Assembly: GCA_905178155.1 (NCBI GenBank)
Contig: CAJINV010000022.1
Location: forward strand, 434,001-498,000
From: Amoebophrya sp. A120
Taxonomy: Eukaryota > Protista > Dinoflagellata
Length of the DNA stretch: 64,000 nt
Reading direction: 5' to 3'
A model generated the notes under the pieces. The model saw nothing but the letters and a program-made list of their open reading frames with translations, was not told where the DNA came from and made no database searches. Both the position numbers and the translations under genes were made by a program. Positions 6,001-41,994 of this stretch are shown here, piece by piece (positions within the stretch are counted from its first letter, which is position 1; each line of letters starts with the position of its first letter).

Positions 6001-9000
6001 TGATATTTTTTATCTTTCCGGCGTCGATGAAGTGGCCCGGGCTACTATCCACAGTAAATTTACCGGACACGTACACATGCGGTCTCTGCATGGCAAAACT
6101 TGTCTTCTTTTCTAGTTTAGCATGACAAGTTTTACACTCCAAATTGGTGAAATTTGTGATGCATCTTGTACATGTACTGGAAATTTGTATTGCATAGCTA
6201 CTACCTAATCCGCTGCTGCTGCCCAAAGATCGCTGGGCCGCCTTGCGCTCGATCCACTGCTCCATGTGCTCCGCGCTTCGGTACCGCCCCGTCTCGAGCT
6301 CCTGGAGGTCTTGTATGCATTGCAAAAGTTGCTTCGTAGTAGACAGAAATTGCAATACAAGTTAGGTCAGCATGACCACAAATGGACTTTCTTATGCTGA
6401 TTCAGCGTAGAAAAGAGATTTGTCATGCATAATTGCGATTACTTCTACGAGTACGATACTTTCACAATGCATATCTTGCAGGGTCTGGCTAAACTTGTGC
6501 GTTTCGACCAGAGGCACAGTGACGTAAAACTTCAACACCGTGACGCTGTGCGCGTACAACGCCTTGGCAATCCTCATCTTCCAGTATGAAAGCCTCAAAG
6601 TGGAAATCCTCAAAATGGAAACAATTTGTGATGCATGAAATGCGACGCAAGAAAGCCTTGTCCTGCTACGGGTTAAGAATTGGAGTGCTGATTAGCACGA
6701 GAGAAGGGCACCCCTTTGCCTTAACCTGCATGACAGACATACTTCGAGTGCCCGGGAAATTTGTCATGCGCCGAGTAGAAATGGTGCTTCAACTGGAGTG
6801 GTTTTTTGCATTACAAACTATTTTCAAATTGAGGATTTCCAACCTGAGGCTTTCATATCCAGGTCTGCAGTCCAAACTGCTCCTGTTTCCACTTTAACAG
6901 CTTTCGGCGAACCATCTTCGGCAGGTGTGGTGAGCAAAACCGTCGTCCCCGCACCAGAGTCAAAATGGAGGGAAACCTGCTAGACAAATCGCCAAACTTT
7001 GGCTGTTGCGCATGACAAATTTTGGCTCGCATAATGTAGCCGTTTTTAGCTAGTGAAGCAGAAAATCACAGATCTAGCATAGTACCATGCGGAAGTGAGC
7101 ATCACAAATCGCAAAATACACCAATAGAAGCTGCTTCTCTTAGGTGGTCTCCGCATGAGAAACTATTTTCAGCATGCAGATTTGCATATACAACCTGGGG
7201 CTGGGGAAGGGACCACGTTTTTACAAATGATAGCAGGTTGCGCCACACGTTGGTCATGGTTTGGTTCACGGAGTTCTGGATAGTGATGCCGAAAGTTTTT
7301 ACCTTGTCTCGGATCCAGTTCCAAGGGTCGGCCTTCTCTACTCTTTTCTGCTTTTGCCTTTTCCGCCACGTCTGGATAGCAGATCTTTTTTTCTTTTGCT
7401 CCTCCTTGCTCGTTCGGCGCCCACTGAACACACTCCTGAGGCTATGCCGAAGGTGGTGCTCCCTCGTTTCATCATCTTCCTCCTGCACGATATCGTCATC
7501 GGGTTCGGCGTCTCCAAATGCAGCAAGTGCTGCCATTTTACTACGTGAAAGTGGATTTATTTGTTCACCTCCAGTGTCCAAATCTTCTATTGCTTCGTCC
7601 AGCTCTTCGGCCTGCCGCTGCGAGAGCATGGAACTCTCTTCCTTTACCATATGCAGCAAGGCGTCTAGATCCGAAATTTTTCCATCCCCGTCCAGGTCCT
7701 CGAGCAGACTGTTCTTTCCATTCTGATCCTCTTCCGCGTCGTCAAAATTCTCGGCCATCATCAATCGGCGCAGTCTGGCAACGTCAGCCTCGTCGTTTGC
7801 TAGGCGGGCCATGAACGGATCCACGTCCGCGTGAGCTCCGGAAAAGATAGACGCTGCTTGTGCTTTTTTGGAGGGCAAGTTGGAGATTTCGTCCCGCTCT
7901 CCAAATCCGAAGTCCACGTGCAGCTCGTGCAGGCTCTGCATATGCAAAGCAAAAGCATCGCGCAACTAGTAGAAATCGCATGACAAATTCCCTCAGCATG
8001 AAAAATGAAATTCGTAATGCGGACTTAGGTTAAGAGGGAGACTTGTAATGCATGACTGCGAGGATTACTACGAGTACGATATTTTTGCAGTTCATACTGC
8101 ATGATGTGGTTCAACTTCTTCCCGGCGTAAAGGTCCTTTCGTGCCACCCGGATCTCGACGCAGATCCGGCTGCCGGGGCGAAACTCGAGGGATTTCGATG
8201 TTTGCAGGGGGGAGCCGGTGCCTTTCACCCAGTCCTTGTGAATCGGGGTCAGCTCGCCGCCGTGGGAGCTTGACCACTATCCTGTGCAAAAGTATCTCGT
8301 ACTCGTAGTACTAATTGCGGTCATGCATTCCAAATTTGTTTCTTAAGGCAAGTCCGCATTACAAATTTTATTTCTCATGCTGAGGAAATTTGTAATGCAT
8401 TTATACGAGTACGATACTTTTGCGATTTATAACCACATCACAGAGACCATTTCCGGTGGCTTCTGCTTCTCCATTTCCTCCTTCGTCATGCCCGCAACTT
8501 GCGCTTTCCAGGCTTCGGGCGTGCTGTGCTGCTCTATCCAAGAAAAAACAGAAACACCCATCCCCATCGAATTTGTCATGGAAAACCTGCATGAGCTGCA
8601 GCGTTTGTCATGCAAAAAATGGATGGGATGGGTGTTTTTCCCTGGATCATATGCTTGTTCTCATTTTCCTCCCCGTGACCCACCAACAGCCACAGGGTGG
8701 CCAGCACATCCTGCTTGCGCACTTATGAGAGTGCACAACTCTCCGTCGTTCTCATTTCTCATGCAAAACACCAATTCCAGACTGTTCCTCCTGTCACTAT
8801 TATGCGTGACAAATTCTGGTAGCCTGAATAGCACTATACTCCTGTGTAAATTTGTCATACAAAACCGGCACTCTTGCTCATGCTTTTATTGCCGTGCATG
8901 CTATACAAATCAGGGGGAGAGGGAGTTATGCATTGTCATAGTACTAACGCTGCCTGTTGGAGATTTGACGCCCAACGACCGTTCATCATGTTGTACTGCT

Positions 9001-12000
9001 GGTCTTGAATTTGTTGTTGGGCACCAGCACCTTGTAGACCGGAATTTAGATTATAGGAGTTAGGAGTAGAATGGCCCATGCCCCCACCGGGCGGGTGATC
9101 TGGTACACCTGCGCCGCCTGCAGCACCAGAGTAGAAATTAATATTGCTCCTTCTGCCTCCTTCTATGCCTGTGTTGTAGCTGTGGCTGTGCGGATTTATG
9201 ATTCCGTTTCCGCCCGTCAAAGAGCTACCCGGAGGTCCTCCACCCCCATAATTGGGATTGTCGTCGTACTGGCATCCCATCGGAATCCAATGCTCCGGAA
9301 TGTTTATGGTCCGGAACAGGGGGGAGAAATCGAGAGGCCTCGAGCAAAAGGGATCGCGGTCGCAGTGGGGGTCATTCTTGATATTGCACTTCGTGCGCAC
9401 GATATCGCACGAAAAAAGTTTTTCGCTGGAAGAATTTTGCAAGTTTTGCATCACAAGTCTGCTCTACATCACAGGGAAAATTTGCCATGGGAGATGCCTA
9501 AGGGAAAACACAGCTAAAAATCTATTGTCTTGCATGTGTATCATCGTCATCACTTGCATGCGTAGCAAGAGAAACACTTCTCAGATGATACATTTTCTGC
9601 ATTACAAGTTTACAGCGAAACAGTTTTTTCTTGCGATACACGAGCCGGGCGAAGTTTTCGACGTCGATCCAAGTCTGCATCACGTTTATCGCAAGAAAAA
9701 AGTGTTACAGTTACACATTGTCATGCAAGACTAGCAACAGAGACGACCTTTCTCATGCAGGAAATGCTTCGGATCCTCGTTTCCTTCGCCTTCCTGTTTT
9801 CCCTTATGATCTTCGCATTACAAGTTTTCTCTGCCACACAGAGAAAATTTGTGATGCAGAAACTCCAACAAATGTGTAACTGTAACACTTTTTTCTCGTG
9901 ATAACGTTCCGCAGTCGAACATAGAAGTCGACTTTTTCCACTGCCTATGAATGGCAAAAGTGTACTATCGTACTCGTCTAAATGCATTACAAATTTCCTC
10001 AGCATGAGAAATAAAACTTGTAATGCGGATTTACCTTTAAGAAAAAGGTTTGTAATGCATGAATTATTACGAGTACGATGCTTTTGCAGTTCATACCTCC
10101 GCGCCCTTCTTCGAAACGCCGAGAAAGTAGGGGTCGTCCTCGATGTATCGCAAGAAAAAACTGTTACAGTTGCACATTGTGTTGCAAGACCGGCGACACA
10201 GACAACCTTTCTCATGCAGAAAATGCTTGCTGGGAGCCTCGTTTCCTTCCTGTTTTCCGTTATGATCTTCGCACTACAAGTTTTCTCTGCCACACAGAGA
10301 AAATTTGTGATGCAGAAACTCCAACAAATACAAATGTGTAACTGTAAACACTTTTTTCTCGTGATACGACGCGCGTGTTTTCTGCCTCGTGCTCCCGAAT
10401 GGTGTACCGCAGCAGATCCAACACCACAAGCTCCACCTTGGACGCCCCCATGCCCAGCCCGAGGGGCAACCCGGCGCTGGCGTCGCACTGCGCTTGGTTC
10501 GTGTGAGAGTGGAGAACTCCCCCTCGCACTCATTTGTCATGCAAAACCCCAGAAGATCCAGTTGCTGCCTTGTGGCACTGTTTGCATAACAGATTCTGAG
10601 AGCCCAAACAGTACTACATCAGGCACATAAAAAATTTGTCATGCACAGGCTCCACGTGTGCTGGTGTAGGTGTTTGTATTGTTGTTCATGCCATACAAAT
10701 GAGGGGGAGGAAGGGTTGTGCACTGTCATAGTTGGTGTCGTCGAGCGAGATGCCCTGGTGAAGAAGCGAGTTTGCGTATCCTGAGTAAAAAAGTACCCAC
10801 AGCAGAGTTGTAATGCAGATTTGCAAAGACAGGAAGACTTGTAATGCGCATCCGCATGAGAGCCATTTCCAGTCGTGTTTTGGAATTTGTGATGCTGTGA
10901 ACAGGATGAGCAGACGAATCTGTGATGCGGCTACACTTGCTAACCTGCACTACACTGCAGAGTGCAACTTGTCATGCGTGACTCACAAAGCTCCTAGGTT
11001 TGTGTTGCAAAATCCCCATCCTGACTCTGGTGTGGGGACGTTTTTACTCAGGATATTGCGTGCAGCGGCTCCAGGGGCCCGTAGGAAATGCAGTTGTGGT
11101 ATGCAATACAAATTCATTTGCGTACATCAACTACATGTGCAAGAAGATGCATCACAAATTTCACCAATTAGGATCTCAAAAACACTTGTCATGCTAAACC
11201 GAGATCGAAGCCAAGTTTTGTCATGCAGAGACCGCATTTGTTTTTGTCCTTACGTCGTGTACGGGAAAAATAAATTTACTATCGATACGTGGGCAAAGTC
11301 GTCCATCTGGATTTTGTAGGCCCGCAGCCGCTCGCTGTGTTCCTTGGTGCACACCCGTTGCAGCGATTCGCGTGAGGTCGAGGCCAGTTTGCTGCAATAC
11401 TTATCTATCAAATGCAAAAGTGTCTGGGCCTGGAAGATTCTGAGACTTGTCATGCATGTTTTGCATGACCCAGGATATTTGTAACGCACGACCTAGCGTC
11501 ACAGATTTTTTGAGGGCTTCCTGATGCCTACTCCGCATGACAAACGCCCTCCCCGCGTAGCGCATACTCTTGCTGGTCATGCAATGCAGATTTTTTTAGA
11601 GTCCAAAGGTAGCATCACAAGTTCCAACCTTCCAGACCCAGACACTTTTGCGTTTGATATTATTCGTTTCCGAGTCGATCATGGCAGCGTGGCGAGAAGT
11701 AGTACTTCTGTGCGACGACGAGTTATTATGAGAGTGCACAACTCCCCCTTCCCCTCACTTGTATGACATCATCAGCATTACAAACACCAGTACAGGTGGC
11801 CCCTGTGCATGACAAGTGCATGCGCCGAGTGTAGTACTGTTTGGATTTCCGAAATTTGTCATGCACACGGTGCCACAAGGTAGCAACTGGATTTGGGTTT
11901 TTGCATGACAAATGAGGGGGAGGGGGAGTTGTGCACTGTCATAGTCATGGTGCGCCGACGCGAACAGCTCGTCGTCGTGCGGATTGTGAGACGAGGAGGA

Positions 12001-15000
12001 GTTATCAAATGCAAATTATGTGTCAGGGTCTGGGAGGTTGATGCAACTTGTCATGTTAAATCTGAATCAGGCAAAAAACTGCGTTGCATGATTGCCAAAA
12101 GTAGTTGTCCACTTCTGCCCTAAAAATCGAGCGCAGTTTCTCATGCGGGATAGGTATTAGAAAGATCTCACAGAATCTGTCATGCTATGTCCTACATACC
12201 AGACCTCATGGGTTTATGGAAAACCTGCATGACAAGTCTGGCATTCTTCCAGAGGACCGAAAACATATTTGCATTTGATAGGAGTAGGCAGCATTTGGCC
12301 CGGTTCGAGCGTTGTGAAGCCCATGTATGGATGTGTGAGGATCGAAATCGACAAAATCGAAAAATTTGTGATGCGTAAAATGTATGGCACTGGAGGCCTG
12401 TATTGGGGAGGAGGCAAATGAGACCGATTGTGAGCCTGTTGAGGGGTATGAAGTGTGCTGCCAAAGTAGCATGACAGAAGCAGTCTTCTTTGCCCAAACA
12501 GCATGACAGACTGCGTTTGAGTTCCCCCGAAATTTGTCATGCGCCACTTACAGACTGAGGCTCCAACTGGTATCGATTTTATGCATCACAAATTTTTCGA
12601 CTTTGTCGATTCCAATCCTGACACTCCCATACCTTGACCGGAGCTAGTATCCGAGAAGGCGCGACTCAAATCTTGCACGTGGAGGCTTGTTATCCTGTGC
12701 AAAAGTATCGTACTCGTACTCATTGCTTTTATGCATTACAAATTTTTTTGTTAAGGCAAATCCGCATTACAAATTTAATTTGTAGTGCTGAGCTAATTTG
12801 TATTGCAATTACTACGTATTATATTCATGCGAAAAAAGAGGTAGACAGAGGGTAAACAAGAGGTGGCCGAGAGGTCAAAAAGAGGCCAAAAGAGGTAAAA
12901 AAGAGGTCGACAGAGGTGGAGAGGTGGCGCGGGACCCCTTTCGAGAGGATCGGCGAAGAGGGTGCGCGAGTATAGCCCGCCGAAGGCCCCACCTTAAGGC
13001 GGCGCCTAAGTGCCTCAGAGGGTGCAGAGAGGTCAAAAAGAGGGGGCGCGAGAGGTCGACAGAGGTCGAGAGAGGTGGCGCGAATAAGGGGCGACCTCTC
13101 GCGGACCCTCTTGGCCACCTCTCGGCCACCTCTGTCGACCTCTACCCGCGAGCATAGCCGGATTATTAGCGGGGACCCCCAAAAGAGGTAAAAAAGAGGG
13201 TCTGCGAGAGGTCTACGAGAGGGTAAAAACACAAAGTGGCGGGCGCGAATCCGCATGGTCATACCCATATTTGGCACTGCAGGCTATTCGCGGACTTGTC
13301 TTGTTCGGCGCCTGTCCCCGCCACCCTCTCGCGCCACCCTCTCGCACACCCTCTCGCGCCACCCTCTCGCGCCACCCTCTCGCGCACCCTCTCGCGCCAC
13401 CCTCTCGCGCAACCCTCTCGCGCCACCCTCTCGCGCTACCCTCTCCCGCCGAGCGCCTTCTGTTCGCCCCCGTTGTTCTTTGCAGCTGCTCCCTGCGCAG
13501 AGCGCCCGCAGGCGCGGGAAGCGCGCAAGTGGTCCTGCGGGTTGGCGCGGCGCAAACCAGCGGCACGAATGCAGTAAGTTTCGTTGTACATAGGCCCGTG
13601 GGGTTGTGGTCCGATCGGCAAACAGTCATGCCCCGGCCCAACAGCCGTGCGCTCCGGCGGCAGCCGGAGCATGGCTGGTTTATACTAGTGCGATGCTTTT
13701 GCAGTTCATACTTGTTGCCCCATGGCGCTGCGTCGCTTTCTTCATGAGAAAGCAACACTGAATTTTCTGCTTCACATATCCCACGAAAAAAGTGCTACAG
13801 TTACACATTGATAAAATATGTAATTTCAGCATCACTAAGTTGCGCTGCACGACGAGAAAAACTTGTAATGCGCAGACAATAAGGCAAAAAAGGATGAAAT
13901 GAGGCTGCCAAGCATTTCCTGCATGACAGAGGTTTTCTGTCTTGCTTGTCTCGCATCAGAATGCTTAACTGTAACACTTTTTTCCCACGATATCACATTC
14001 TCGATGTAGTCGAGCATCTCTTGGATGTATCCAGGAAAAACCACCCATCCACATCCAATTTGTCATGCAAAACACGTATAGGATCCTGTGTTTGTCATGC
14101 CAAAAAGGAAAAATGGGTGTGGAGGGTTTTTTTTCTGTGGATAGGATGTTTAGCTGACACGACGTGGTGATGGGGTTCCGTTTGTGAATATCCTGTGTAA
14201 AAACGTCCCTACCCCGGAGTTGTCATGCAAATGTGCAAAGACAGGACCACTTGGAGTGCGCATTTCCATGAGAGGCATCATTTCCAGTCGTGTTTTGGCA
14301 TTTGTAATGCTGTAAACAGGATGAGACAATGGCTTTCTCATGCGGCTTCACTTGTTAGCCTGAAAAAATACATTGCAGATGGAATAAACTTGTCAGGCAA
14401 AACTCCCAAAAGAACTTGGGGATTTGTGTTGCAGACTTGCCATCTTGACACTATGGTGTGTGGACGTTTTTACATAGGATAGTGGATGCTGTTCCCACCC
14501 GTCAAATCGACACTCATCTCGATGTCGCGACCGATGCGGAAGTGTGAACTGCAAAAGTATCCTATCGTACTTGTATAATTGCGTTACAAATTTGCTCAGC
14601 ATGAGAAAAAAAAATTGTAATGCGGAGTTACCTTAACAAGAAGATTTGTAATGCATGACTGCAATGAGTATGACTACTAGCCTCTTGACGCGGGCGCCCA
14701 GGACGCCCGCTGGGCTAGTAGATTTAAACGCTTAGAAGGTCTGGCGTGGAGTCGAATAGGATGTGGCTAGAAGGTTGAAAAGCATAACGCTGCCTGCCGC
14801 GAGGAAGATCGTTGCCGCGCCTGCGCTTGCCCTACCGGCCTCGCCGCCTTAACGCCTTTTGCGGTCCGGCGTCCAGGACGCCGGCCCGCCGTCAGCCCTA
14901 TAGCCGCGTTGCCGCGCCTGCGCTTGCCCTCGCGGCCTCGCCGCTTTAACGCCTTTTGCGGTCCGGCGTCCAGGACGCCGGCCCGCCGTCAGCCCTTTAG

Positions 15001-18000
15001 CCGCACGCGGCAGGCAAAGCGAAGGAGGCCAGTTGCGAAGCTTATTCTGGGGCGGCTTCGGCGGCCGGCGTAAAGAAAACCCCCGCCCCTGGATGGGGAT
15101 GGGCCTCACGCTTCCGGGGGCTTGTTTGCGCGGTTTTGCCTCGCGCCCCCCCACCCATGCCATACACCAGAAGCCGAGGGGCAAAAGCGTGCGCGAGAAA
15201 AGTGATTGAAGCCGAATAGGAAAAGCGTGCCCGGCCGGAACGAAAGAGGTGGCAAAAAGTGCCTGCCTGGAAGCTCTTGGCCATCACTCTTGCCCGGTTG
15301 CCCGACCGGAAAGTGATGGGCAAAAGTGATGGCCATGGAGCACTTGGCCAACACTTTTGCGCGACCAGAAAGTGGTGGCCGCGGAGCTCTTGGCAAACAC
15401 TTTTGCCCGCGCGGGAAGAAAGTGAGTGACTGATGGCCGAAAGTGAGGGCCTGGGAGCTCTTGGCCATCACTTTTGCCCGACGGACAAGAAAGCGCTGGG
15501 CAAAAGCAATAGACAAGGCAGGGGCCCTTGGCCACAACTTTTGCCCGTCCGGAAAGTGGTTGGCAAAAGTGATGGCCAAGGAGCTGTCGCCATCGTTTTT
15601 CTTTGCCCGGCCGAAAAGTGATGGCCAGGGAGCTTCTAGCCATCACAACTTTTTCCCGACCGGAAAGCGATTGCAAAAATTGATGGCCGCGGAGTTCTTC
15701 GCCATCACTCTTGCCCGAGGGAGCCAGCGACCGGAAAGCGATGGCCAAAATCGCTCTTGCTCGGACGAAAAGCGATGGCCGCGGAGCTCTTGGCCATCAC
15801 CTTGCTTTGCCCGGCCGCGAAGCGATGGCCACTTTGACGGCCAGGGAGCTCTTGGCCAGCACTTGCGCCCGGCCGAAAGGCGATGCCCAGGGAGCTCTTC
15901 GCCATCACTTTTGCCAGCGCTTGCCAAGGGTTTCTTTCATCGAAAAAAACCAGCGCCAAGCTCGTGGCCCCATGTTGTCGCCAGGATACGCTTCGCGACG
16001 GACAGTATCCTGACGACGGCAGGAAGATTCGGACTCGAAAAAATGGCATTCCCATTTTTCCAATCCGGGTCCCCCTGCTGTCGTCAGGATACTGCCGCGA
16101 AGCCCTTCGCGACAGTATCTATCCTGGCGACAACAGGGGGGCTCGGGGGTGAGAGTGGTGCTCGCACTGACTTGGGCGGCAAGTTGTGAAAACCGCTGCC
16201 ACGTCCGAGTCCGCCTGTTGTCGTCGGGATACTGTCGCGAAGGGCTTCGCGACAGTATCCTGACGACAACAGGGGGGCTCGGGGCTGGAGATGGTTTCCA
16301 CGCTTGGGCTGCAAGTTGTGCAAACCGCTTTCAGGTCCGAGCCCCCCTGTTGTCGTCCGGATGCTGTCGCGAGCGCTTTCGTGACAGCATCCCGACAACA
16401 GCATGGGGATCCGGACTTGGAATCGGTTTTCGCAATTTGCCCGCCCAAAGTGATAGCCAGGGAGCTCTTGGCCATTATTTCAGCCCGACCGGAAAGCGAT
16501 GGCCAGCGGGCTCTTGGCGAGGTCTTTTGCCCGAACGGAAGGCGATGGCCATGGAGCTCTCGGCCATCACTCCTGCCCGGCCGGGAAGTGAAGGCTCAGG
16601 AGTCCCTGGCCACCACTTTACCCGGCCGGAAAATGATGGCACCAGAGGAGCTCTTGCCCATCATTTTTGCCCGGCCGGACAGTCAAAGTAGTCAGTGACC
16701 AAGGGCCCGACCGGAAAATGATGGCCCAGGAGCTCCTGCCCTTGGCCATCACTTTTGCCCGGCGGGCCGGAAAGTGATGGCCAAAATTGATGGCCAGGCG
16801 GGAGTTCTTAGCCATCATTTTTGCCCGACCGGAAAGCCATGGCCAAGGGGCTCTCGGCCATGACTTATGTCCGAGCCAGCGGAAAGTGGTGCGTGGCCGA
16901 CGAGCTCTTGGCCATCTCTTTTGCCCGGCCAGGAAACGATGGGCAGACAGAGAGCCCCGAGCCATCGTTGCCTGACCGGAAAGCGATGGCCACGGAGGAG
17001 CTTGCGGCCATCATTTTCGCCCCCCCGACCGGAAAGTGGTGGCCAAAAGTGACGCATGGCCAGGGGGCACTTGGCCATGCGTCCCTTTTGCATGCCCGAC
17101 CGGAAAGCGATGGCAAAAAGAGATGGCCAGAGAGTTCTGGGCCATCACCTTCGCCCGGCCGGAAAGTGATGGCCAAAAGTGATGGCCCGAAGGGGGCGTC
17201 TGGCCATCACGTTTGCCCGATCGGAAAGCAATTGCAAAAACTGATGGGCGACCACGGAGTTCTTGGCCACTGACCCTTTTGCCCCCCCCCGTCCGGAAAG
17301 CGATGGGTGGCCAAAAGTGATGACCAGGCAGGGAGCCGCTGGGCGTCACTTTGTTTCGCCCGACCGGAAAGTGACTGACGGCCATCCAAAACTTACTTAA
17401 AGCGATGGCCCGGGGGCTCTAGGCCAGCAATTTTGCCCGACCGAAAGGTGGCCGATGGCCAAAAGTGATGGCCCAGGAGCTGTTGGCCATCACTTCTGCC
17501 CGACCGGAAAGCGATGGCCAAAAGCGACGGCCAGGGAGTTCTCGGCCATTACTTTTGCCCAGGCGGGCCAACGAAAGCGATGGCCCCGGGGCTCTTGGCC
17601 ACCACTTTCGCCCGGCCGGAAAGCGATGGCCGAGGAGCTCCTGGCCATCGCTTTTGCGCGCCCCGGCCGGAAAATGATGGCCGAGGAGCTCTCGGCCATC
17701 ACTTCTGCCCGAGCAAAAGGCGATGGCCGAAAGCGACGGCCAAGGGGCTCGTCGCGGCCGCCACTTTTTCACTTGCCCGAACCGATCGGACGGCGATGCT
17801 GATGGCCGAGGAACTTGTGCCCGTCACTTTTGCCCGATCGGAACGAAAATGATAGCCGCCGAAAGTGATGGCCACCCATCCAAGGGGCTCCTGGCCATCA
17901 CTTTGCCTGGCTGCCCGGCTGTCCGTCCGAGCGAAAAGTGGCGGCCGGGGAGCTATCGGCCATCACTGTTGCCCGTGCAGAGTGATGGCCAAGTGGCTCC

Positions 18001-21000
18001 AGGCCATCACTTTCGCCCGACGAACCGGAAACACTTTTGCCCGAGCGAAAAGCGACCGACACATGCATGGCCAAGGAGGTCCTGGCCGTGCCGTCGCTTT
18101 TGCCCGCCCGGGAAGTGATGGCCAAGGGCCTCTCTGCCATCACTTTCTTTTGCCCGACCGGGAAGTGATGGCCAAAAGCGATGGCCAGGGAGCTCTTCTT
18201 GGCCATCACTTTTGCCCGAGCGAAAGTTGGTGGTTGGCCGTGGAATTTTTGGCCATCACTTTTGCCGGCCGGAAAGGGAAGGCCAGGGATCACTCTGCCC
18301 GACCGGAAAGTGATGGCCCAGGAGGGGCTTTTGGCCATCAATTTTGCCCGGCCGGTAAGTGATGCTTTTGGCCCCGGAGCTCGCGGCCGCCGCTTTTGCC
18401 TGACAGACTGGGCATGCCCCCCTTGGAAAACTTTTGCCCGAGCGAAGGCAAGGGGATGGCCAGGGAGCTCTTGGCCATCATTTTTGCCATGCCGGAAAGT
18501 GATGGCCGAGGAGTTGATCCCTGTTTTCGGGCGGGAAAACGGGGGCAATCGGGCTTGTCGACGCTTTCTCTAGCAAAATCACACTGAAGTTGATGCGTGG
18601 CTTTGCTCTGCTGCTCGCCAGAGCGTGCAGCGTAACATTTTGCACGACGGTACGGGGTACAGATAACGGGAACGCGTTCAATCTGTTACACGAAGCGTCT
18701 AGACGAGACCTTCTAAGCACATTCGTTTAGAATTATTTTTCTAAGTGCCTCCTATAGATTATAGCAAAGGGGGAGGGCAAAGTCGTTTCGCTATTATTAT
18801 AATTATGAGTACGAGTACGATACTTTTGCACAGGATAGGAAGGCCGGGTTCGGAAACATCCTCTGGTCGTTGTGGTTCGGCATTTCGTTGGTCAACACAG
18901 GCCCCCCGCGCACCAGCCAGGCCAGGCCGCGCAGGTACAGCGTAGTCTCCAGCTGGGTGAAGGGTTTCACGTGCTCACGCCGCAAATCGAAGCCCGCATC
19001 CTGGGGTGCTGTGGTAGTTCCACCACGCGCCCTCCGCAGAGCCTTGTTTTCTTCTTATCAAATGCAAAAATGTCTGGGTCTCCAGACTTGTAATGCTAAA
19101 AGTGAATGGTAGACGCACTGCAATACGCAGCTATGCATGACAAATTTTTTGGCTGCCATGTCTTACGTATTCCGCATGGCAAACTGCGTTTTTGCATGAC
19201 AGGTAAGAGGGCCTTTTCGTGCCTATGCAACACAGATTCTCGAGTCATGCCAGACAAACATGACAAACTTGCATCCTTCCAGACCCAGACATTTTTGCAT
19301 TTGATACCTCCACCTGCTGTGCGAAGTTGTCGTTCCCCACGATCCCGCTTGGAAGCTGCAGGGGCGGCAACATAAAAAGCACGTCTTTCTCGCGCTGGTG
19401 TACCGAAAGGAAAAATCCCCCCTCCCCATATTAACAAGGTAAGTTTTCGGAAATTTGTGACGCTGATTTGTGACAACAAATCGCGCCTGTCTTGCAAGAA
19501 GGCAACTCCACAGGCTCCGCAGCATTAATATGCAGGCGGTTTGTCATGCTGTTGGGCCTACAGCGCGGACGTTTTTCATGCTAAGCGCCTAGGCCAAATC
19601 CTCTCTACTCACACTTAGCATGGGCCTGCGGTCCTCTCCAGCAAGACAGCTCGGATTTCTGTACACAAATCCAGCATCAGAAGCTTCGGTTTGATATGGG
19701 GAGGGGGGATTTTTCCCTTTGATATGGTGGTGGTGATGCTCTTGTCCTGGCGAATGCTGGTGCTGATGCAAGAGCGCTGTTTTGTGGACGTGGTCCGCCA
19801 CAATGCGGTAGTTGCAATAGGGTTTGGCATACTGCCGCACACAATCAGGATGCGCCTCACAGAGCACGTGGTCTATCGCACGAAAAAAGTGTATACAGTT
19901 ACCCATTTGTTGGAGTTTCGGCATCACAAAGTTGCTCGACATGGCAAAGAAAGCCTGTGCCTGTGATGCGCAGACTATAAGTGAAAACACGAATGAAATG
20001 AGGCTGGAAAGCATTTCCTGCATGACAGAGGTTATCTGTCTTGCTGTCCTTGCGTCAGGGTATGTAACTGTAACACTTTTTTCTCAGGATATGGCCACCC
20101 TTGACCTCATTGATTTCTGGACACGTGAGCAGCTCGACCTATGAAACGCAAATATGTCTGGGTCCTCTGGAAACTTGTTATGCTGAATGGTGATGATTGA
20201 CTGAGACTGTGCCTATGCCTTTAAGTGTATTGCAGCATGACACATTTATTTTCAAACGCTGTCTCATGCGCAGAACGCATCACAAACTTCGCTTTTGCAT
20301 GGCGAAAGTGGAAGTGCGGTACCTTATTTGCTGCTATATGCAATACAGATTTTTTAGATATGCGAAACACGCAATACAGGCTCAACCTTTATTCCCGACC
20401 CAGACACATTTGCAGGTGATACGACCGCAGCCAGCACGAATTCTCGCTCCGTGTAGTATCCTGTGTAAAAACGTCCCCACACCATAGTCAAGATAGGGAA
20501 TCGGCTAGACAAATCCACAAGCTTTGGTTGTTTTGCATGACAAATTTGGACTCGTAGTGTAGTGCTGTTTGAGGTAGCTCAGCAGCATTACAGATCTAGT
20601 ATATCATGCTGATTGGAGCATGACAAATATCAAAACACGACTAAAAGGCGCTTCTCATGGGGTTCCGCATGAGATACATTCTTAGCATGCAGATTTGCAT
20701 TCCAACTATGGGGTGGGGACGTTTTTAAATACGATATGTAGGTCTCTCCGTTTATCTCAATCTCCCCAGCAGCCATAGGGGTCGGAGTGGGACGAGCAGC
20801 TCCTCGTCGTGACCTGGAGTTGGAACTCTTGGGATGTGGATTCACATTCGCATTCCGGTATGCAGTGCAAAAGTATCGCACTCGTACTAATTGCGTTTAT
20901 GCATTACAAACAAGGTCCGAGCACGGGGACAGAGTCCCCGCGCGGCGACCTTCCGGCATTTGTCTGCGCGGTGGCACTGGGCAGGCAGGTCGCCTGCAGC

Positions 21001-24000
21001 TAGGCATCTCGGTGCGCCTTGCATTCACTGACCCGCGACGGGCCTGCGGACGCGGCCCCCTTGCTTGCGCGCACTAGATTCATTCACTAGCCTGCCGCGC
21101 GCAAAGATAAAAGCAAGAAACGAAGAAACTGGCGCGCGCCCGCCGGGTCAGGAGCCGGCCGCCAGGTCATGACGCGGCGACAGAGTCCCCGCACCGCCCT
21201 AGGGCTTTTCTCTGCCCCTTCCATCCTTGGCCGCGCGGTGTGGTGTCCGGGGAGTGTTCCTTCGCAACTAGCCCCTAGGCCATGACGCGGGGACCGGGTC
21301 CTCGCGCTGGCCTAGGGCTTTCGCCCTTTGGCCGCACGGTGTCCGCGAAGCGCTCACAGCTGGCCCCTGGGCCATGGCGCGGGGACCGAGTCCCCACGCT
21401 GGCCTAGGGCTTTCGCCCCTAACTTCGCCGCACGGTGTCGCCGGGGAGCGCTTGCAGCTAGCTTGCTGGCCCCTAGGCCATGGCGCGGGGACCGAGTCCC
21501 CGCGCTGGCCTAGGAAGGGCTTTCGCCCCTTGGCCGCACGGTGCCCGAGAAGCGCTCGCAGCTGGGCCCTAGGCAATGGCGCGGGGACAGAGTCCCCGCG
21601 CACGCTGGCCTAGGCGGGCCAGGGGGGGCTTTCACGCTTTGGCCACATGGGGGCACGGGAAGTGTTACAAACTAGCACGTAGGCCATTGCGCGGGGACCG
21701 AGTCCCCGCGCTGCCCTAGGGGTCAGCTTCGCCCCGCCCTTGGCCGCGCGGTGTCCGGGACGGAAGCGCGCAGGAACAGCTGGCCCCTAGGCCATGGCGC
21801 GGGGACCGAGTCCCCGCGCTGGCCCAGGGCTTTCGCCCCTTGGCCGCACGGTGTCCGGGGAGGAAGCGCTAACAGCTGGCCCCTAGGCCATGCATGACGC
21901 GGGGGCCGAGTCCCCGCGCTGGCCTAGGGCTTTCCCCCCTTGGCCACACGGTGTCCGGGAACGGAACGAAGCGCCCAAAGCTGGCCCCTAGGCCATGGCG
22001 CGGGGACCGAGTCCCCGCGCTGGCCTAGGGCTTTCGCCCCTTGGCCACACCTTGTCCGGGAAACGCCAACAGCTGGCCCCTAGGCCATGACGCGGGGACC
22101 GAGTCCCCGCGCTGGCCCAGGAATTTCGATCGCCCCTTGGCCGCACGGCGTCCGGGAAGCGCTCCCAGCTGGCCCCTAGGCCATGACGCGGGGGCCAAGT
22201 CCCCGCGCTGGCCTAGGGCTTTCGCCCCTCGGCCGCACGGTGTCCGGGAAGCGCCGACAGCTGGCCCCTAGGCCATGACGCGGGAGCCGAGTTCCCGCGC
22301 TGGCCTATGGCTTTCGCCCCTTCCTTGGCCACGCCGTGTCCGGGAAACGCCTGCCAGCAGCTGGCCCCTAGGCCATGACACGGGGACCGAGTCCCCACGC
22401 TGGCCTAGGCCTTTCGCCCCTTGGCCGCACGGTGTCCGGGAAGCGCTCACAGCTGGCCCCTAGGCCATGACGCGGGGACCGAGTCCCCGCGCTGGCCTAG
22501 GGCTTTCGCCCCTTGGCCGCACGGTCTCGCGTGACAGACTGGACTTCGGGTCCAAACCTCACATGACAAAGTCCGAAAGTTTGGCCGGGGTGTGTCCGAA
22601 AGTCTGCCCGGGGTGTGTCCGAAAGTCTGCCCGGGGTGTGTCCGAAAGTCTGCCCGGGGTGTGTCCGGGGTGTGTCTGGGGTATGTTCGGACTTTTTGCC
22701 TGGGGTATGTTCGGGGGTCTGTCTGGGGTATGTCTGGGGTGTGTCTGGGGTGTGTCTGGGGTATGTTTACACCCCACCTGTTGGCTTTTCGGCAAAAAAT
22801 TGTAGTCCCCCCGTGATTGAGGAGCATTTGCATACCCCTGACACACCCCCGAACACACCCCCGAACATACCCCTCGCATGCATTTTTGACCAGCTGCTGC
22901 AGTTTAGATAGTAATCTCTTTGCTAAGGCAAATCTGCATTACAAATTCTAATTTTATTTGTAATGCTATGTCAATTTGTGATGCAATTTATGCTAGTACG
23001 ATACTTTTGCAGTTCATATCCGGAGCAGATTCGCAATGGTTGCTTCCTGCTGCTTGGCCAGCTATTACAATGAAAAATGCGAATGCCCACACCCCAGAGC
23101 TTGGCAGCATTTGTATTGCAAACCTTTCCAATGGAAACATTCCTCGTGCCCGTCCTGCATTTTTCAGCATCACAAATTTGATTTTGATGCCGTGCCGAAT
23201 AACAAAATTTGTATTGCAAAGGAGCCCAACAGAAGCCGGATCTGTTATGCAAAAGATACCTTGCGTGCCTAAATTCTGCATGAGAAAGGCTCGTCGTCGT
23301 CCTTTCATGCAAGACAGAAAGGCTTCACTTGGAAGCTTTGCATGAGAAACTTTTGCAAATTCCGAGGCGGGGGCATTTTTCATTGTAATACCAGCTCTGC
23401 TTTTTTTTTCTTGCTCATGTTCCCATCGGTCGCGGTTAGACACATGGCGGGGAGCCCGAGCCTGGCCGCCGTGCTGTGCTGGTGCACAGAGCTGCCAGAG
23501 CCGCGGCTGATCCCAGGGAGCAGACTTTGGTAGACCTCTTCCAGCTGCTGCGTGGTGGCCTGCGGGTGGGCTCGGTAGTAGTCCTGCAACCGGAGAAAGC
23601 GCTCGCGCTCGTATCAAAAGGAAAAATCCCCCCTCCCCATATCAAAACGGAAATCTGTGACGCAGATTTGTTGGCACAAATCAGCTTTGTCATGCTACAC
23701 GGGAAAAGATGCGGACTGTAGTGCTGGGTGGCGTGGGGGAGCCTTGCATCTTCAGCATGATAGGAGGCAGCTGAGAGTGGGAAACAGCATGACAAATTGC
23801 CTGCAAACGAGACCACGACTGCGGCTCTTGGCCTTCTAGCATTACAAGTCGATTTGTGACCTCAAATCCTGCATCACAGATTTCCATTTCGATATGGGGA
23901 GGAGGATTTTTCCGTTTGATAGCTCGCAAATTTTTTTCACTTGCTGCTCGACCTGAGCCGCGCGACTATCGTCATCTTCCCCGGCATATCAAGTTCAAAA

Positions 24001-25169
24001 GTGTCTGGGTCTGGAAGGATGCGAGCTTGTGATGCGCATTTCACAACGCAGACAAATCACTCATGCATGGGCAGCAAAAGGCGCCCATTTCCTGTCACCA
24101 AAATGGGGGATTTGTCATGCGGATTAAGCAATGCGGAAACTTCTCGAAATCTGTGATGCTAGGGCTTCCATGACAGACATTTTGTGTCATGCAAAAACAG
24201 CATGACACTTCCAGACCCAGACATTTTTGCATTTGATACTGCGGATTCCATGAAGCAGGGAAGCTGGCCGAAGAACTGGTGCTCCTCTGTTAAGCTGGCT
24301 TGTGCTTGATGCATGTTGCTAGTTCGCACTTCGTCAAAATTAAAGTGGGCGGCGTCGCGATGCGCTTGTGAAGCGCTTGCGTCGTTCTCGTCCTCTTCGG
24401 CAGTATCTTGCTGCTGTTGGCCCCTGCCCGGGGGCTTTGGCTTTGGTTTTGCCTTTTCGGATTTTCTCCTTTTCTCCTCCTCTTCTGCCTGCCGTTCGGA
24501 TTGTTATCAATTGCAAAAGTGTCTGGGTCTCGAAGATAATTGCAAGGTTTGTCATGCATATTATACATGCCCCATGATGCATGTAATGCATAGCCTAGCA
24601 TCACAGATATTTGCAGGGCTTCCTGATCCATATTCCGCATGAGACATGCCCTCTCCGCGTAGCACAAACCACCGAACTCCTCTTGCTGGGCACGCAATAC
24701 AGATTTTTATAGAATCCGAAGACAGCATCACAAGCTGCAGTAGATATTTGCATTTGATAATTGTGGCGTCGCGTCGATTTCTTCCAGATGGTTCAAGATT
24801 TCCCCCTATGCACTGCAAAAGTATCGCACTCGTATAAAATGCATTACAAATTGCCTTAGTGTTACAAATCACAATTTGTAATGCGGATTTACTTTAAGAA
24901 AAAGATTTGTAATGCATGACTGCAATTCCTACGAGTAAGATGCTTTTGCAGTTCATACCCCTATGGGAATGGGCTCCTTGCCGCTCTTCTCGAAGACCTT
25001 GTCAATCTTTGCCTTCGTGCTTGTCAGGTGCAAGGACAACGGGGACGGCAGCCAGACGAAGTGCACTTTTCCTTGCACGTACTTCTTCCAAAATTCGAAA
25101 AAGAAAATGTCCAGCGTTTTGTGAGTGTGCGGCACCCTGTAGTCCTCTTTGTGCACCTGCAGGGACTCG
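1..25169 (-). CDS. Very large multi-exon gene, unknown function (~51 exons, ~50 introner introns); 5' end not identified, 3' end beyond the window start
   Basis: Removing each TAT..ATA element plus one DR joins open minus-strand frames at the junctions checked, e.g. KEPIPIG|EILNHLEEIDATPQ|SERQAEEEEK, KAE|LAKQQEATIANLLR|NANVNPHP, MFPNPAF|RIGRDIEMSV. Larger exons: ~3050-3525, 5576-5844, 7233-7940, 8941-9402, 24958-25169. Could be more than one gene. Confidence 0.7.
384..757. mobile_element. Introner family I (degenerate left end)
   Basis: Right end GGGGGCATTTTTCATTGTAATA matches the copy at 23063-23390; left boundary approximate. Confidence 0.55.
866..1195. mobile_element. Introner family A, degenerate
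   Basis: TATGCATTGGTTGCAAAT...TTCCAGAC..ATTTGCAGATCCATA; DR atctc/acttc. Confidence 0.6.
1238..1490. mobile_element. Introner family A
   Basis: TIR TAT..TGCAAAAATGTCTGGGTCTGGAA / TTCCAGACCCAGACATTTTTGCATTTGATA. Confidence 0.85.
1553..1814. mobile_element. Introner family A
   Basis: TIR TATCAAATGCAAAA; DR CGCCC. Confidence 0.9.
1880..2145. mobile_element. Introner family L
   Basis: TAT..GCTCAGCTGTTACA / TGTAACGTTTGAGCAGGTCATA; DR GGTGA. Confidence 0.8.
2231..2498. mobile_element. Introner family A
   Basis: TATGCATTGGAAATATGTCTGGG...ATATTTGCAATGCATA; DR gatgt/ggtgt. Confidence 0.8.
2634..2790. mobile_element. Introner family B
   Basis: TIR TATGCACTGCAAAAGTATC..GTACTCGT; DR TCCCT. Confidence 0.9.
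2881..3049. mobile_element. Introner family J
   Basis: TATGCAATACAAATTTCCCGTACA...TGTACGGGAAAAAATTTGCTGTGGATA; DR tgggc/agggc. Confidence 0.8.
3526..3840. mobile_element. Introner family A
   Basis: TIR TATGCATTGCAAA; DR TCGTA. Confidence 0.85.
4025..4306. mobile_element. Introner family D
   Basis: TIR TAT(T/C)CTGAGTAAAA.CGTCCCCACACC. Confidence 0.85.
4356..4621. mobile_element. Introner family A
   Basis: Family A TIR; DR GAGCG. Confidence 0.9.
4735..4977. mobile_element. Introner family E
   Basis: TIR TATGAGAGTGCACAA..CCCCCT; DR GCTCG. Confidence 0.9.
5088..5237. mobile_element. Introner family B
   Basis: TATGAACTGCAAAAG...CGAGTACGATACTTTTGCAGTGGATA; DR tctgc/tccgc. Confidence 0.85.
5314..5575. 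mobile_element. Introner family A
   Basis: ~30-bp TIR; DR TGAGC. Confidence 0.9.
5845..6005. mobile_element. Introner, family C-related
   Basis: TIR TATCACA.GAAAAAGTGTTAA.GTTAAC; DR TTTTT. Confidence 0.85.
6046..6196. mobile_element. Introner family J (opposite orientation to 2881-3049)
   Basis: TATCCACAGTAAATTT...AAATTTGTATTGCATA; DR GCTAC. Confidence 0.85.
6314..6473. mobile_element. Introner family B
   Basis: DR TCTTG; TACGAGTACGATACTTT near the right end. Confidence 0.85.
6585..6857. mobile_element. Introner family H
   Basis: TIR TATGAAAGCCTCA..GGAAATCCTCAA; DR TCCAG. Confidence 0.9.
6926..7232. mobile_element. Introner family D, degenerate
   Basis: Internal similarity to other D copies; DR GCAGG. 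Confidence 0.75.
7941..8096. mobile_element. Introner family B
   Basis: DR CTGCA. Confidence 0.85.
8278..8431. mobile_element. Introner family B
   Basis: TATCCTGTGCAAAAGTATC..; DR ACCAC. Confidence 0.9.
8535..8651. mobile_element. Introner family K (short)
   Basis: TIR TATCCA.GAAAAA..ACACCCATCCC; DR tgctc/tgctt. Confidence 0.8.
8724..8940. mobile_element. Introner family E
   Basis: TATGAGAGTGCACAACTC; DR gcact/gtact. Confidence 0.85.
9403..9638. mobile_element. Introner, family C-related
   Basis: TATCGCA.GAAAAAA..TTTCGCTG TIR; DR CACGA. Confidence 0.85.
9687..9903. mobile_element. Introner family C
   Basis: TIR TATC.C.AGAAAAAAGTGTTACAGTTACACATT; DR ACGTT. Confidence 0.92.
9946..10095. 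mobile_element. Introner family B
   Basis: Internally very similar to 2634-2790. Confidence 0.85.
10146..10366. mobile_element. Introner family C
   Basis: Close copy of 9687-9903; DR cgatg/cgacg. Confidence 0.9.
10502..10730. mobile_element. Introner family E
   Basis: DR gttcg/gttgg. Confidence 0.85.
10777..11055. mobile_element. Introner family D
   Basis: TIR TATCCTGAGTAAAAA; DR TTGCG. Confidence 0.9.
11100..11287. mobile_element. Introner family J
   Basis: DR tgtgg/cgtgg; similar to 2881-3049. Confidence 0.8.
11406..11659. mobile_element. Introner family A
   Basis: ~30-bp TIR; DR ttatc/ttatt. Confidence 0.9.
11727..11943. mobile_element. Introner family E
   Basis: TIR TATGA.AGTGCACAACTCCCCCT.CCCCTCA; DR gttat/gtcat. 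Confidence 0.9.
12003..12280. mobile_element. Introner family A
   Basis: DR GGAGT. Confidence 0.88.
12326..12631. mobile_element. Introner family G
   Basis: TIR TATGG..GTGT.AGGAT.GAAATCGACAAA; DR ccatg/ccttg. Confidence 0.85.
12691..13710. mobile_element. Introner family B expanded to 1.0 kb by a nested insertion
   Basis: Left B part 12691-12810, right B TIR 13679-13710; DR CTTGT on both sides. Confidence 0.88.
12811..13678 (+). mobile_element. Non-autonomous Helitron/Helentron-like element with internal tandem repeats
   Basis: Starts ACTAC after TT. Ends in hairpin CAGCC..GCTCCGGC-GGCA-GCCGGAGC..GGCTG (13642-13677) then G|TT. Internal AGAGG repeats and a CCACCCTCTCGCG array (~13320-13445). 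Confidence 0.6.
13777..13992. mobile_element. Introner family C
   Basis: DR TCACA. Confidence 0.85.
14028..14143. mobile_element. Introner family K
   Basis: DR GGATG. Confidence 0.85.
14189..14481. mobile_element. Introner family D
   Basis: DR gtgaa/gtgga. Confidence 0.85.
15230..18530. repeat. Degenerate tandem array of ~40-50 bp palindromic units
   Basis: Unit consensus GGAAAGTGATGGCCAGGGAGCTCTTGGCCATCACTTTTGCCCGACC; dozens of copies. Confidence 0.9.
15970..16410. repeat. Four ~55-bp near-perfect palindromes embedded in the satellite
   Basis: e.g. CTGTTGTCGTCGGGATACTGTCGCGAAGGGCTTCGCGACAGTATCCTGACGACAACAG (~16215-16272). Confidence 0.85.
19056..19306. mobile_element. Introner family A
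   Basis: TIR TATCAAATGCAAAAATGTCTGGGTCT. Confidence 0.9.
19401..19724. mobile_element. Introner family F
   Basis: TIR ..AAAGGAAAAATCCCCCCTCCCCATAT; DR TGGTG. Confidence 0.88.
19874..20091. mobile_element. Introner family C
   Basis: DR tggtc/tggcc. Confidence 0.88.
20140..20421. mobile_element. Introner family A
   Basis: DR CGACC. Confidence 0.82.
20457..20736. mobile_element. Introner family D
   Basis: DR TGTAG. Confidence 0.9.
21165..22525. repeat. ~14 tandem copies of a ~95-bp hairpin-containing unit
   Basis: Unit core CCTAGGCCATGACGCGGGGAC-CGA-GTCCCCGCGCTGGCCTAGG. Confidence 0.92.
22570..22875. repeat. Short tandem repeats (GTCCGAAAGTCTGCCCGGGGTGT and GGGGTGTGTCT types)
   Basis: Directly visible. 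Confidence 0.85.
23063..23390. mobile_element. Introner family I
   Basis: TIR TATTACAATGAAAAATGC; DR CCAGC. Confidence 0.9.
23612..23921. mobile_element. Introner family F
   Basis: TIR TATCAAA.GGAAAAATCC.CCTCCCCATATC; DR GCTCG. Confidence 0.92.
23987..24238. mobile_element. Introner family A
   Basis: Family A TIR; DR degenerate. Confidence 0.85.
24505..24759. mobile_element. Introner family A
   Basis: DR ATTGT. Confidence 0.85.
24807..24957. mobile_element. Introner family B
   Basis: DR ccccc/cccct. Confidence 0.88.
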
Positions 25170-25350
25170 TATCCAAGAAAAAAACTGTGTTAGTGTAAGT
25201 CTCTTGGGAAAACAGCATCACAAGTTTGTCTGCAATGACAGGAAAAACTTCTTATGCGCAGATAGGAAGGGAAAACACATAGGAAGCCAGCCGATCATGC
25301 ATGTCAAGCATGACAAGTGTAACTGTTTTGCATTTTCTGCATCACAGATT
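25170..25350. mobile_element. Family C-like introner, left part only
   Basis: TATCCAAGAAAAAAA.. with degenerate C internal sequence; no matching right TIR or DR seen. Confidence 0.45.
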
Positions 25351-25547
25351 TACTCCCGCAGAGGGAGCGAAAGAGCACGGCCCGAGCAATTTAGAAGATC
25401 ACAAATAGTAAATTTTTAGTCGGTTCAAAAAATGAAGTAGCTTGGTCGGTTTTGAAGTTGAGACACGCAAGCGCTCCCCGGGTAGACCGAGGCGATGGCG
25501 TTGGTGACGGCCTAGCGCCCTCGCTGTCATCGTTCTCCTAAAAATCT

Positions 25548-25574
25548 AAAAAAAAAAAAAAAAAAAAAAAAAAA
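25548..25574 (+). repeat. Poly(A)27 tract
   Basis: Directly visible; followed by CCCCGGGGG. Confidence 0.9.
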
Positions 25575-26074
25575 CCCCGGGGGCGTTTGCGCAACTTGAT
25601 CCCAATAAAGCACAAAAAGAACGAGAAGCAAAATCGGTCGAGCGCGATCAGAGACAAGAAAAAGAAGGCAAGCGAGTCGGTTCCTTCGTTCAGAATTCCA
25701 AAGCTCGTGCAAGATTCGGAAAAAATTAACCGCGTGCAATGAAATAGATTGCGAGTCGTTCCAAATTCGTTCGGACTAAATCAACAAAAGCCCCGAGGGG
25801 GTAGCGACTTCGGTAACGTTCGAAATTGATCGACTGATGCGATTAACGTTCAAAATTGATTACAGCCTAGGGGGATCGTGTTTGAAAATGTGCAGCAATA
25901 TGTTGAAAGCAAGCAAACGGGACAGATCTACAGCGGATCGCATTGACCAAATGGATCAGAAATAGGACCGAAAAGATGAGTGCCACCATAGAAGTGAAGT
26001 GATTTGAATGATTTAGGAAGAAGACGGCAGGGAATTTGCGACCATTGAAGGAAAAAGTTACGAGGTGTGACAAA

Positions 26075-26698
26075 ATGGGTAAAAGTGATTATCCGCTAGG
26101 GTGGCAGCGTAGCGAAGCGCACCGCTATAAATTACCGCACGAGGGATGGAGCAAACAAACTACAAAGCGCAAATATGAGCGCAAGAGTCGAGCAGAAGTA
26201 GTGGCGGAGAGAGCAAAGAAAAAGGAAGACGAAGCGCGACGAGAGGAGCGGCGCGCCGCAAGGGCAGAGCATTGGAGGCAGTGGTGGGCGTCATTCAATG
26301 TTCCCCGGACGCCAGAGGAAGAGCGACAGCGAGAAAAAGCGCTGGACGCTTCAGAGGCGCAGCATTACGCACAAGTTTTGGAAAAAGCTAGCTGGCAAAT
26401 TGAGGGAGAATATTGCGGAGAAGGAGGCACCTTCGCCATGTTCACAGGCTGCACCACTCACGGCGACTATGCCGGTGACAAGCTTTTCACCGCGTACCTG
26501 AATCGGAGAAAAAGCGCAACGCTGCGCGACAGTTTCTTGGATGGGAAAACGTATCGCATCACACTGAAAAAGCTCAGAGGCGAAAAGAGGAACCGCTGGA
26601 CTGATTTTTTGTATAAGGCGCGAAAGGTTGAATTGTTGGAAGACGTGCACAAACGTGAACAGGAAAAGGGAGAAAACGAGAGAAATGCACAGTCATAA
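26075..26698 (+). CDS. Hypothetical basic/charged protein (intronless)
   Basis: 207-codon ORF MGKSDYPLGWQR..., purine-rich and protein-like; no recognisable domain. Confidence 0.5.
   Translation: MGKSDYPLGWQRSEAHRYKLPHEGWSKQTTKRKYERKSRAEVVAERAKKKEDEARREERRAARAEHWRQWWASFNVPRTPEEERQREKALDASEAQHYAQVLEKASWQIEGEYCGEGGTFAMFTGCTTHGDYAGDKLFTAYLNRRKSATLRDSFLDGKTYRITLKKLRGEKRNRWTDFLYKARKVELLEDVHKREQEKGENERNAQS

Positions 26699-28694: not shown

Positions 28695-28698
<4 letters not shown>

Positions 28699-28734
<36 letters not shown>
28699..28734. repeat. (CA)18 microsatellite
   Basis: Directly visible. Confidence 0.95.
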
Positions 28735-28738
<4 letters not shown>

Positions 28739-41816: not shown

Positions 41817-41994
41817 TTTGTGCACCGTTTTGCGCGTGCCGCTACAGAGCCGCTGGCTTCGGTGCCTTTTTGTACCGTTTCGCAAACTGATGGGGCAACT
41901 TGCGCGCATTTTGATCCATTTTCACCAATATGCAGCAAATTTGCGCGTTTTCGTGCTTTTTGCATAGCTTTCGCGGTCATTTTGCTGCTTTTGT

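Follow-up and report, generated by a model that had tools for sequence, protein, structure and literature searches.

Introner elements of the dinoflagellate Amoebophrya sp. A120 have been described as carrying inverted repeats that start with TAT, lying between direct repeats of 3-5 nt and giving introns with non-canonical (non-GT-AG) ends (PMC7789003). One introner survey filters secondary insertions out by design (PMC9860276), so a layer of elements nested within introners is easily missed. Nested inserts, enlarged introners and an internal target motif are undescribed for the A120 introners in the available text of PMC7789003 and PMC12130899, where the word "nested" has no match, and neither a term search of PMC12005148 nor the available text of PMC12130899 yielded anything on elements nested in or targeting introners; the literature matches listed contained no such report either. 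We analyzed a 64,000-nt stretch of the A120 genome (contig CAJINV010000022.1, positions 434,001 to 498,000 of the forward strand; hereafter the window), in which one gene contains three introners of a single family, family B, each enlarged by a large insert. The best overall explanation, which we judge somewhat better than even, combines an insert 3 that targets a motif, movement by a rolling-circle route and removal of the inserts together with the host intron.

The introners of the window resemble those described for A120 (PMC7789003, PMC12130899) in their TAT inverted repeats, short direct repeats and non-GT-AG ends: across the window, introns start with TAT, end with ATA and have 5-nt direct repeats alongside. 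The host gene lies on the minus strand (758..25200, the upstream end being approximate); its function was not identified, and nine of its larger exons gave no Pfam match at the curated cut-off. All 49 of its introners start with TAT, and their flanking 5-mers agree at 3-5 of 5 positions, as in the definition of an introner host in PMC7789003 (section 11). Forty-six of them measure 116-330 nt, while the other three measure 1020, 2160 and 4295 nt. Family B accounts for 10 of the 49 copies and for 13.7% of the emptied introner bases. When each introner plus 5 nt is removed, a 1980-codon open stretch results that spans all three enlarged introns.

The three enlarged introners, all on the minus strand, are host 1 (12691..13710, TAT...ATA, direct repeat ACAAG), host 2 (14543..18837, direct repeat CTTCC) and host 3 (20859..23018, direct repeat CCGGA), which have expanded 6.8-fold, 27.9-fold and 13.8-fold, respectively. 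Once emptied, they measure 150, 154 and 156 nt and share 128, 130 and 126 identical positions with the best of 11 intact B copies in end-to-end alignment. B paralogues continue straight over the insert-3 site (joints 20910>22917 and 20910>22919). These alignments show that the inserts are nested in pre-existing B copies. Much of the initial annotation stands: its insert coordinates (12811-13678, 14671-18804 and 20911-22912) are exact, the three introners are the only large ones in the gene, B makes up about a fifth of the gene's introns, and the flanking exons join in frame. Its statement that terminal inverted repeats and direct repeats were left intact also holds, since the 5-nt direct repeats, which it had given as CTTGT, GGAAG and TCCGG, are perfect; the single blemish is that host 2 has a terminal ACA (its right end) in place of ATA.

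We also considered whether the enlarged introns are spliced. Runs X3 and X4 derive from one sample whose RNA status was guessed, and we term their contigs transcript-like. Contigs of both runs join 12685 directly to 13711, skipping 1025 nt (the host 1 element plus 5 nt), and an X3 contig joins 14537 to 18838, skipping 4300 nt (the host 2 element plus 5 nt), with neighbouring short introns skipped on the same contig. Enlarged introns 1 and 2 are thus removed in transcript-like contigs. No joint for host 3 was present among the 15 of 24 joints listed. X3 record 5 and X4 record 11, however, each span 23391-23500 as well as the exon that ends at 20853, and the 39 letters separating the two stretches are exactly the length of exon 23019-23057; from this exact arithmetic we infer that enlarged intron 3 is removed as well. 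Splicing of the expanded introns is therefore seen in two direct joints and follows from record arithmetic for the third. The raw RNA runs X9 and X10 contributed merely 78 and 6 reads, which lie on introner fragments and are uninformative for the host gene.

In minimum-free-energy folds, 22, 24 and 21 end-to-end pairs remain in the three hosts compared to 26 in an intact B introner, and only 2-5 pairs form between insert and host. Splicing would thus, on this prediction, survive insertion because the host terminal repeats remain able to pair when the insert forms a fold of its own. Because the cut keeps its register even when a 150-nt element has been lengthened to 4.3 kb, it is likely by the paired ends and nearby motifs that an intron is recognized, not by its length or interior sequence. 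The enlarged introns accordingly bear on the open question of how non-GT-AG introns are removed in Amoebophrya.

The inserts themselves differ from one another. Insert 1 (12811..13678, 868 nt, plus strand) starts with ACTA, carries AGAGG-rich and 13-bp tandem repeats (13319-13450, plus strand) and ends in a hairpin (13642..13677, plus strand; inner arms 13651-13658 and 13663-13670) followed by G; it has TT on both sides and occupies the site ATT^TATA. Insert 3 (20911..22912, 2002 nt, minus strand) starts with ACTAT, ends in a hairpin and GGACCTTG, a single G coming after the long hairpin as in insert 1, and likewise has TT on both sides. Its minus-strand internal repeats comprise 11/23-bp repeats (22571-22766) and a ~92-bp GC-rich palindromic satellite, and its terminal hairpin (20912..20952, minus strand) lies within a ~58-nt terminal block that is kept in a second copy described below. 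Insert 2 (14671..18804, 4134 nt if the flanking duplication is read as 7 bp, minus strand) consists to ~79% of a palindromic 46-62-bp satellite, ends in TATTATTATAATT on the plus strand and is flanked by a duplication (14664-14670 and 18805-18811) that can be read as 5-7 bp long. Its inner parts, also on the minus strand, include a 97-bp duplicate (14810-15004) and a 132-bp palindromic block (16064-16408); the latter interrupts the 46-62-bp array and may be a derivative of the array or a further nested piece.

At the hairpin end of insert 2 (hairpin 14674..14721, minus strand; z -4.9, with 0 of 200 shuffles folding as well), an exact 13-bp subterminal inverted repeat (14730..14742, minus strand) lies 8 nt upstream of the hairpin and was matched in none of 100 shuffles. 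In the minimum-free-energy fold it pairs with its left counterpart (18706..18718, minus strand), which starts at nt 87 of the insert and forms only a weak local hairpin (z -0.1). The word GAAGGTC occurs both in the insert 2 subterminal repeat (14730-14742) and at the foot of the insert 3 hairpin (20912-20952), which could reflect coincidence or a recognition site common to the two inserts. In each insert, one end alone forms a strong hairpin (z -2.6 to -5.3), while the opposite end folds no better than shuffles, so the earlier description of the inserts as hairpin-ended applies to all three, at one end each. The insert ends read ACTA...TGG or TTG, and AATT...GTCA, and internal tandem repeats are present in all three. 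In agreement with the initial annotation's view of three different elements, insert 2 stands apart in its anatomy, and inserts 1 and 3 share only ACTA at their ends. Reading frames of at least 100 codons in the inserts look like low-complexity repeat read-through. Taken together, these features suggest that the inserts are three unrelated, non-coding, satellite-carrying mobile elements.

No further copy of any insert was found within the window. However, while the exon pieces of X3 and X4 are identical to the window, contigs covering the ends of each of the three inserts deviate from it at up to 8 positions, indicating that these contigs come from other copies. Such copies are represented by X4 records 6 and 7 and X3 record 1 for insert 1, and by X3 record 2 and X4 record 8 for insert 2; X3 record 2 carries a 112-letter flank that does not align to B at the insert-2 site. 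With 30 of 30 bins of insert 3 covered, X1 and X2 behave like DNA. Their depth is 25 and 42.6 on the exact-match contig and 654 and 470 on the contigs of the insert-3 terminal region, which suggests roughly 10-25 copies of insert 3, depth not being a strict copy number. At the insert-3 junctions, X1, X2, X5 and X8 gave no loose end in the 24 of 139 matches listed and almost no contigs diverging from the insert-3 stretch, both results being uninterpretable with 29-nt flanks and short contig overlaps. The insert end patterns had 0 matches in viral_contigs and genome_contigs. Thus, all three inserts belong to multi-copy, dispersed non-coding families.

When metagenomes were scanned for the final 20 nt of insert 3, a pattern containing no flank, two matches were returned, L001 and L002. 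The flanks of L002 do not continue the element, and it was dropped as a chance match. L001 (JACKZZ010003061.1, 1501-1877, 377 nt) conserves both ends of insert 3, has no 92-bp array and lies at ATT^TGTAATGC with TT on both sides, the same site as that of insert 3. Its host, an introner of 243 nt that has been enlarged to 622 nt, is matched by window positions 63543-63784 (192 identities) and is not a B copy; when its flanks are joined, the frame stays open. Tolerance of expansion, which the initial annotation had ascribed to B introns and put at 7-30-fold, is therefore borne out in extent by the 6.8-27.9-fold enlarged hosts that are absent from transcript-like contigs, but it is not specific to B.

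In the window, the right part of the insert-3 target motif, TTTGTAATGC, lies at 20901..20910 (minus strand) and its left part, ATT, at 22913-22915, the motif being regenerated after insertion. The 11-mer accounts for 26 of the 4079 TTT sites in the window (~0.6%) and for 16 of 891 in the host gene's introners. Within those introners, 15 of the 16 occurrences of ATTTGTAATGC and 23 of the 37 ATTTRTA sites fall in B, with no ATTTGTAATGC in exons, whereas a looser motif, TTGTVATGC, occurs 100 times in the gene, spread over all introner groups but absent from exons. The insert 1 site, ATT^TATA, has ATTTRTA in common with the motif. On the sequence of two full independent copies, the insert-3 family quite probably targets the motif ATT^TGTAATGC. 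Because the 11-mer is densest in B, an element specific for it would mostly land in B without recognizing B as such, and motif density would explain the B bias of inserts 1 and 3. Insert 2 shows no sign of targeting, its X3 record 2 copy not being at the same B site, and may be in B by chance. The proposal that the elements target B introners is therefore not borne out in that form, given that the L001 copy sits in a non-B introner at the same 11-bp motif and that X3 record 2 does not continue into B. The clustering is, by itself, suggestive rather than strong evidence: the chance of three of three inserts falling in B is 0.0026 by length and 0.0085 by count, and 0.023 is the fair post-hoc value for all three landing in any single family.

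The explanation that we favour runs as follows. Three unrelated mobile elements entered B introners and leave the message along with the host intron; the insert-3 family would enter at ATT^TGTAATGC, a variant of a motif found in nearly all introners here and densest in B; and movement would proceed via an HUH/rolling-circle (Helitron2/HINE-like) route, with the enzyme encoded elsewhere. The combination of a hairpin at one end, flanking T and satellites in the centre is the anatomy of non-autonomous Helentrons (PMC4067079, PMC7492417, PMC11417382). The rolling-circle type suggested in the initial annotation is plausible. Two features of HLE2 (Helitron2/Helentron, HINE) were found: at the 3' hairpin of inserts 1-3 and of L001, at most 1 of 200 shuffles folds as well, and TT borders inserts 1 and 3 and the L001 copy on either side, as in T/T insertion. 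HLE2 insertion makes no target-site duplication; here, TT may be borne by the element or duplicated, and 5-7 bp are duplicated around insert 2, exceptions having a precedent in CRe-1/2/3; a T|T reading of insert 2 is possible, but it leaves the 7-bp match unexplained. Canonical Helitron (HLE1) ends, namely 5' TC, 3' CTRR and A/T insertion, were not found in the inserts, nor were short terminal direct repeats of the Replitron type, the longest shared words being internal 6-mers. No Rep-helicase partner was detected by Pfam in the window open reading frames scanned. Since inserts 1 and 3 lack the inverted repeats and the A120 paper names only retroelements as autonomous, we do not file the inserts as HLE2 members; that they move in the manner of HLE2 derivatives, by rolling-circle chemistry, is on their anatomy about an even chance. 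Separately, a spliced-leader remnant was considered and rejected, as the 4-nt match to the leader end is too short.

Several observations weigh against the reading that we favour. For targeting, the evidence consists of two full copies of one family; the insert 1 site resembles the motif only in part, and no other insert-1 flank extends beyond three letters. X4 record 12 also enters the motif, possibly through a chimeric path with this locus, and carries little weight. With respect to the rolling-circle route, inserts 1 and 3 are without the 8-15-bp subterminal inverted repeats of HLE2 (the best match is 9 bp with a mismatch, equalled by 62 of 100 and 84 of 100 shuffles) and have no end homology to each other past ACTA. 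The left repeat of insert 2 is 87 nt away from the end, where HLE2 would have it within 0-4 nt, and the duplication and AT-rich end of this insert would also fit a retroelement. The main text and text supplement of PMC7789003, figures aside, do not mention Helitrons in the parts available and give only retroelements as autonomous. Regarding splicing, the RNA status of X3 and X4 is a guess for a single sample, and when the inserts were shuffled, predicted folds retained the host end pairing in 7 of 8 trials, which indicates that this pairing can do without the hairpins of the insert.

The main rival holds that the inserts are passengers resembling short interspersed nuclear elements (SINEs), placed by target-primed reverse transcription by sequence-specific long interspersed nuclear elements aiming at introner motifs, with the hairpin end as the 5' end and the AT-rich end as a tail. 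We regard this as unlikely, if the most serious of the alternatives. The 5-7-bp duplication and plus-strand TATTATTATAATT end of insert 2 would suit such passengers, retroelements of both the LTR (long-terminal-repeat) and the non-LTR kind are the autonomous transposable elements in the available text of PMC7789003, and the targeting of Tx1D by Tx1L provides a precedent (PMC6719617, section 13). Nevertheless, the ends of the two insert-3 copies are exact and the same in each, no variable tail accompanies them, the duplication is of only 2 bp, and the subterminal inverted repeat of insert 2 would be unexpected in a SINE. No head of tRNA, 5S, 7SL or snRNA origin came to light: ARAGORN found 0 tRNA genes, and Rfam detected no ribozyme or known RNA family in the inserts, giving no match at the gathering score and only sub-threshold microRNA-hairpin matches. 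Integration of a circular form by a tyrosine or serine recombinase, via a 2-bp TT core that becomes duplicated, would account for a sequence-specific choice of site by inserts 1 and 3, yet we consider it very unlikely. A fixed target is typical of site-specific recombinases, and TT is exact on both sides in three of three ACTA-type insertions; on the other hand, no dyad symmetry was noticed around the joined ends (no formal test was made), a one-sided hairpin with expanding satellites fits single-strand replication better, and insert 2 is left uncovered.

The two remaining alternatives concern where the elements land. If there were no targeting, elements would enter T-rich sites and persist only in introns, the B cluster being chance or survival bias. 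This could accommodate the post-hoc probability of 0.023 for three inserts in one family, the second insert-2 copy away from the same B site and a candidate insert in a non-B introner (~42861-43083), but it leaves unaccounted for that L001 has the identical 11-bp site, given that this site makes up only ~0.6% of window TTT sites and 16 of 891 in the gene's introners, and we hold it to be very unlikely. Least credible of all, to the point of being nearly discounted, is that family B is recognized as such or that B-plus-insert composites spread. All three inserts of the host gene are indeed in B; however, the L001 copy in a non-B host contradicts such recognition as an exclusive rule, and the three sites are at different B positions and in both orientations.

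A bolder form of the motif-targeting reading makes insert 3 a sequence-specific hyperparasite of the single-strand (HUH) type that would recognize the shared introner motif and pick its target by base-pairing; inserts 1 and 2 would then occupy the same niche as independent families. When the two insert-3 copies are folded by prediction, a conserved ACAAAT immediately upstream of the terminal hairpin pairs with the target TTTGT, a feature noticed post hoc that recalls the DNA guides of IS200/IS605; no clear equivalent was found in insert 1. We offer this model as a distinctly speculative one and consider it unlikely. If it were true, nearly every jump would land in sequence that is spliced out of mRNA.

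Other features of the window were also recorded. Two B copies outside the host gene (45736-45884 and 56051-56199) are 98.7% identical, and the former lies inside a short repeat, with AAACT on both sides, of which empty versions are present near 46800 and 49440; these near-identical copies and empty versions indicate that B moved recently and also lands outside the host gene. At 42608-43115, a non-B introner-like element of ~505 nt holds a ~200-nt AT-rich stretch between two copies of CTTCCAGA (42861 and 43076), a candidate nested insert. A long G-skewed region (25500-42500) contains decayed introners and remnants of open reading frames, with no Pfam match better than E 0.01 among the frames scanned. 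A gene rich in introners occupies 53400-63200 on the plus strand; close to its start lies a weak OTU-like cysteine-protease match (E 0.008, which falls short of the curated cut-off), and two of its exons are very long and lack Pfam matches. Tandem arrays outside the host gene occur at 28689-29395, 42004-42230, 50819-50963 and 51436-51839, their units being a CA run with 231-bp repeats and 82-, 16- and 70/86-bp repeats.

Among described rolling-circle elements, HINE, DINE-1 and Cg_HINE (PMC4067079, PMC7492417) resemble inserts 1 and 3 in being non-coding and in having central tandem repeats, a hairpin near one end and at least two T on each side, and HINEs resemble insert 2 in that a 13-bp subterminal inverted repeat is followed by a palindrome. 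In contrast, HINEs prefer T-rich or TT sites rather than an 11-bp motif, subterminal inverted repeats are missing from inserts 1 and 3, and in insert 2 a duplication is present and the left repeat is far from the end. Insert 2 is also like CRe-1/2/3, non-autonomous members of Helitron2 in Chlamydomonas (PMC3627910), in which an asymmetric inverted repeat lies just upstream of the 3' hairpin and whose 7-19-bp duplications and occasional extra 5' sequence fit insert 2; however, CRe-1/2/3 insert after TTTT and carry Fanzor, whereas insert 2 has no convincing 5' hairpin or open reading frame. Replitrons (PMC10288648) share with the inserts a right-end hairpin and oriented insertion, and Replitron-1 makes variable duplications, but these eukaryotic HUH elements have short terminal direct repeats that the inserts lack. 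Satellite-bearing non-autonomous Helitrons are on record from another alveolate (PMC13085455).

If targeting holds, insert 3 would be a transposon that uses the introners' common motif as a genome-wide safe landing pad, and safe-haven targeting would here be aimed at introns that are transposons themselves. Mobile elements that prefer another element as a safe haven are known from Tx1L and Tx2L, which target Tx1D in Xenopus, and from Tourist miniature inverted-repeat transposable elements found in Tourist (PMC6719617, section 13), and the inserts would be alike in this respect. Unlike in those systems, the target here would be a motif common to intron-forming families, the hitchhiker is spliced out, and the inserts encode no reverse transcriptase. 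Thus, while element-on-element targeting is already known, its aim at an introner motif, as read from two full copies, would be the new part.

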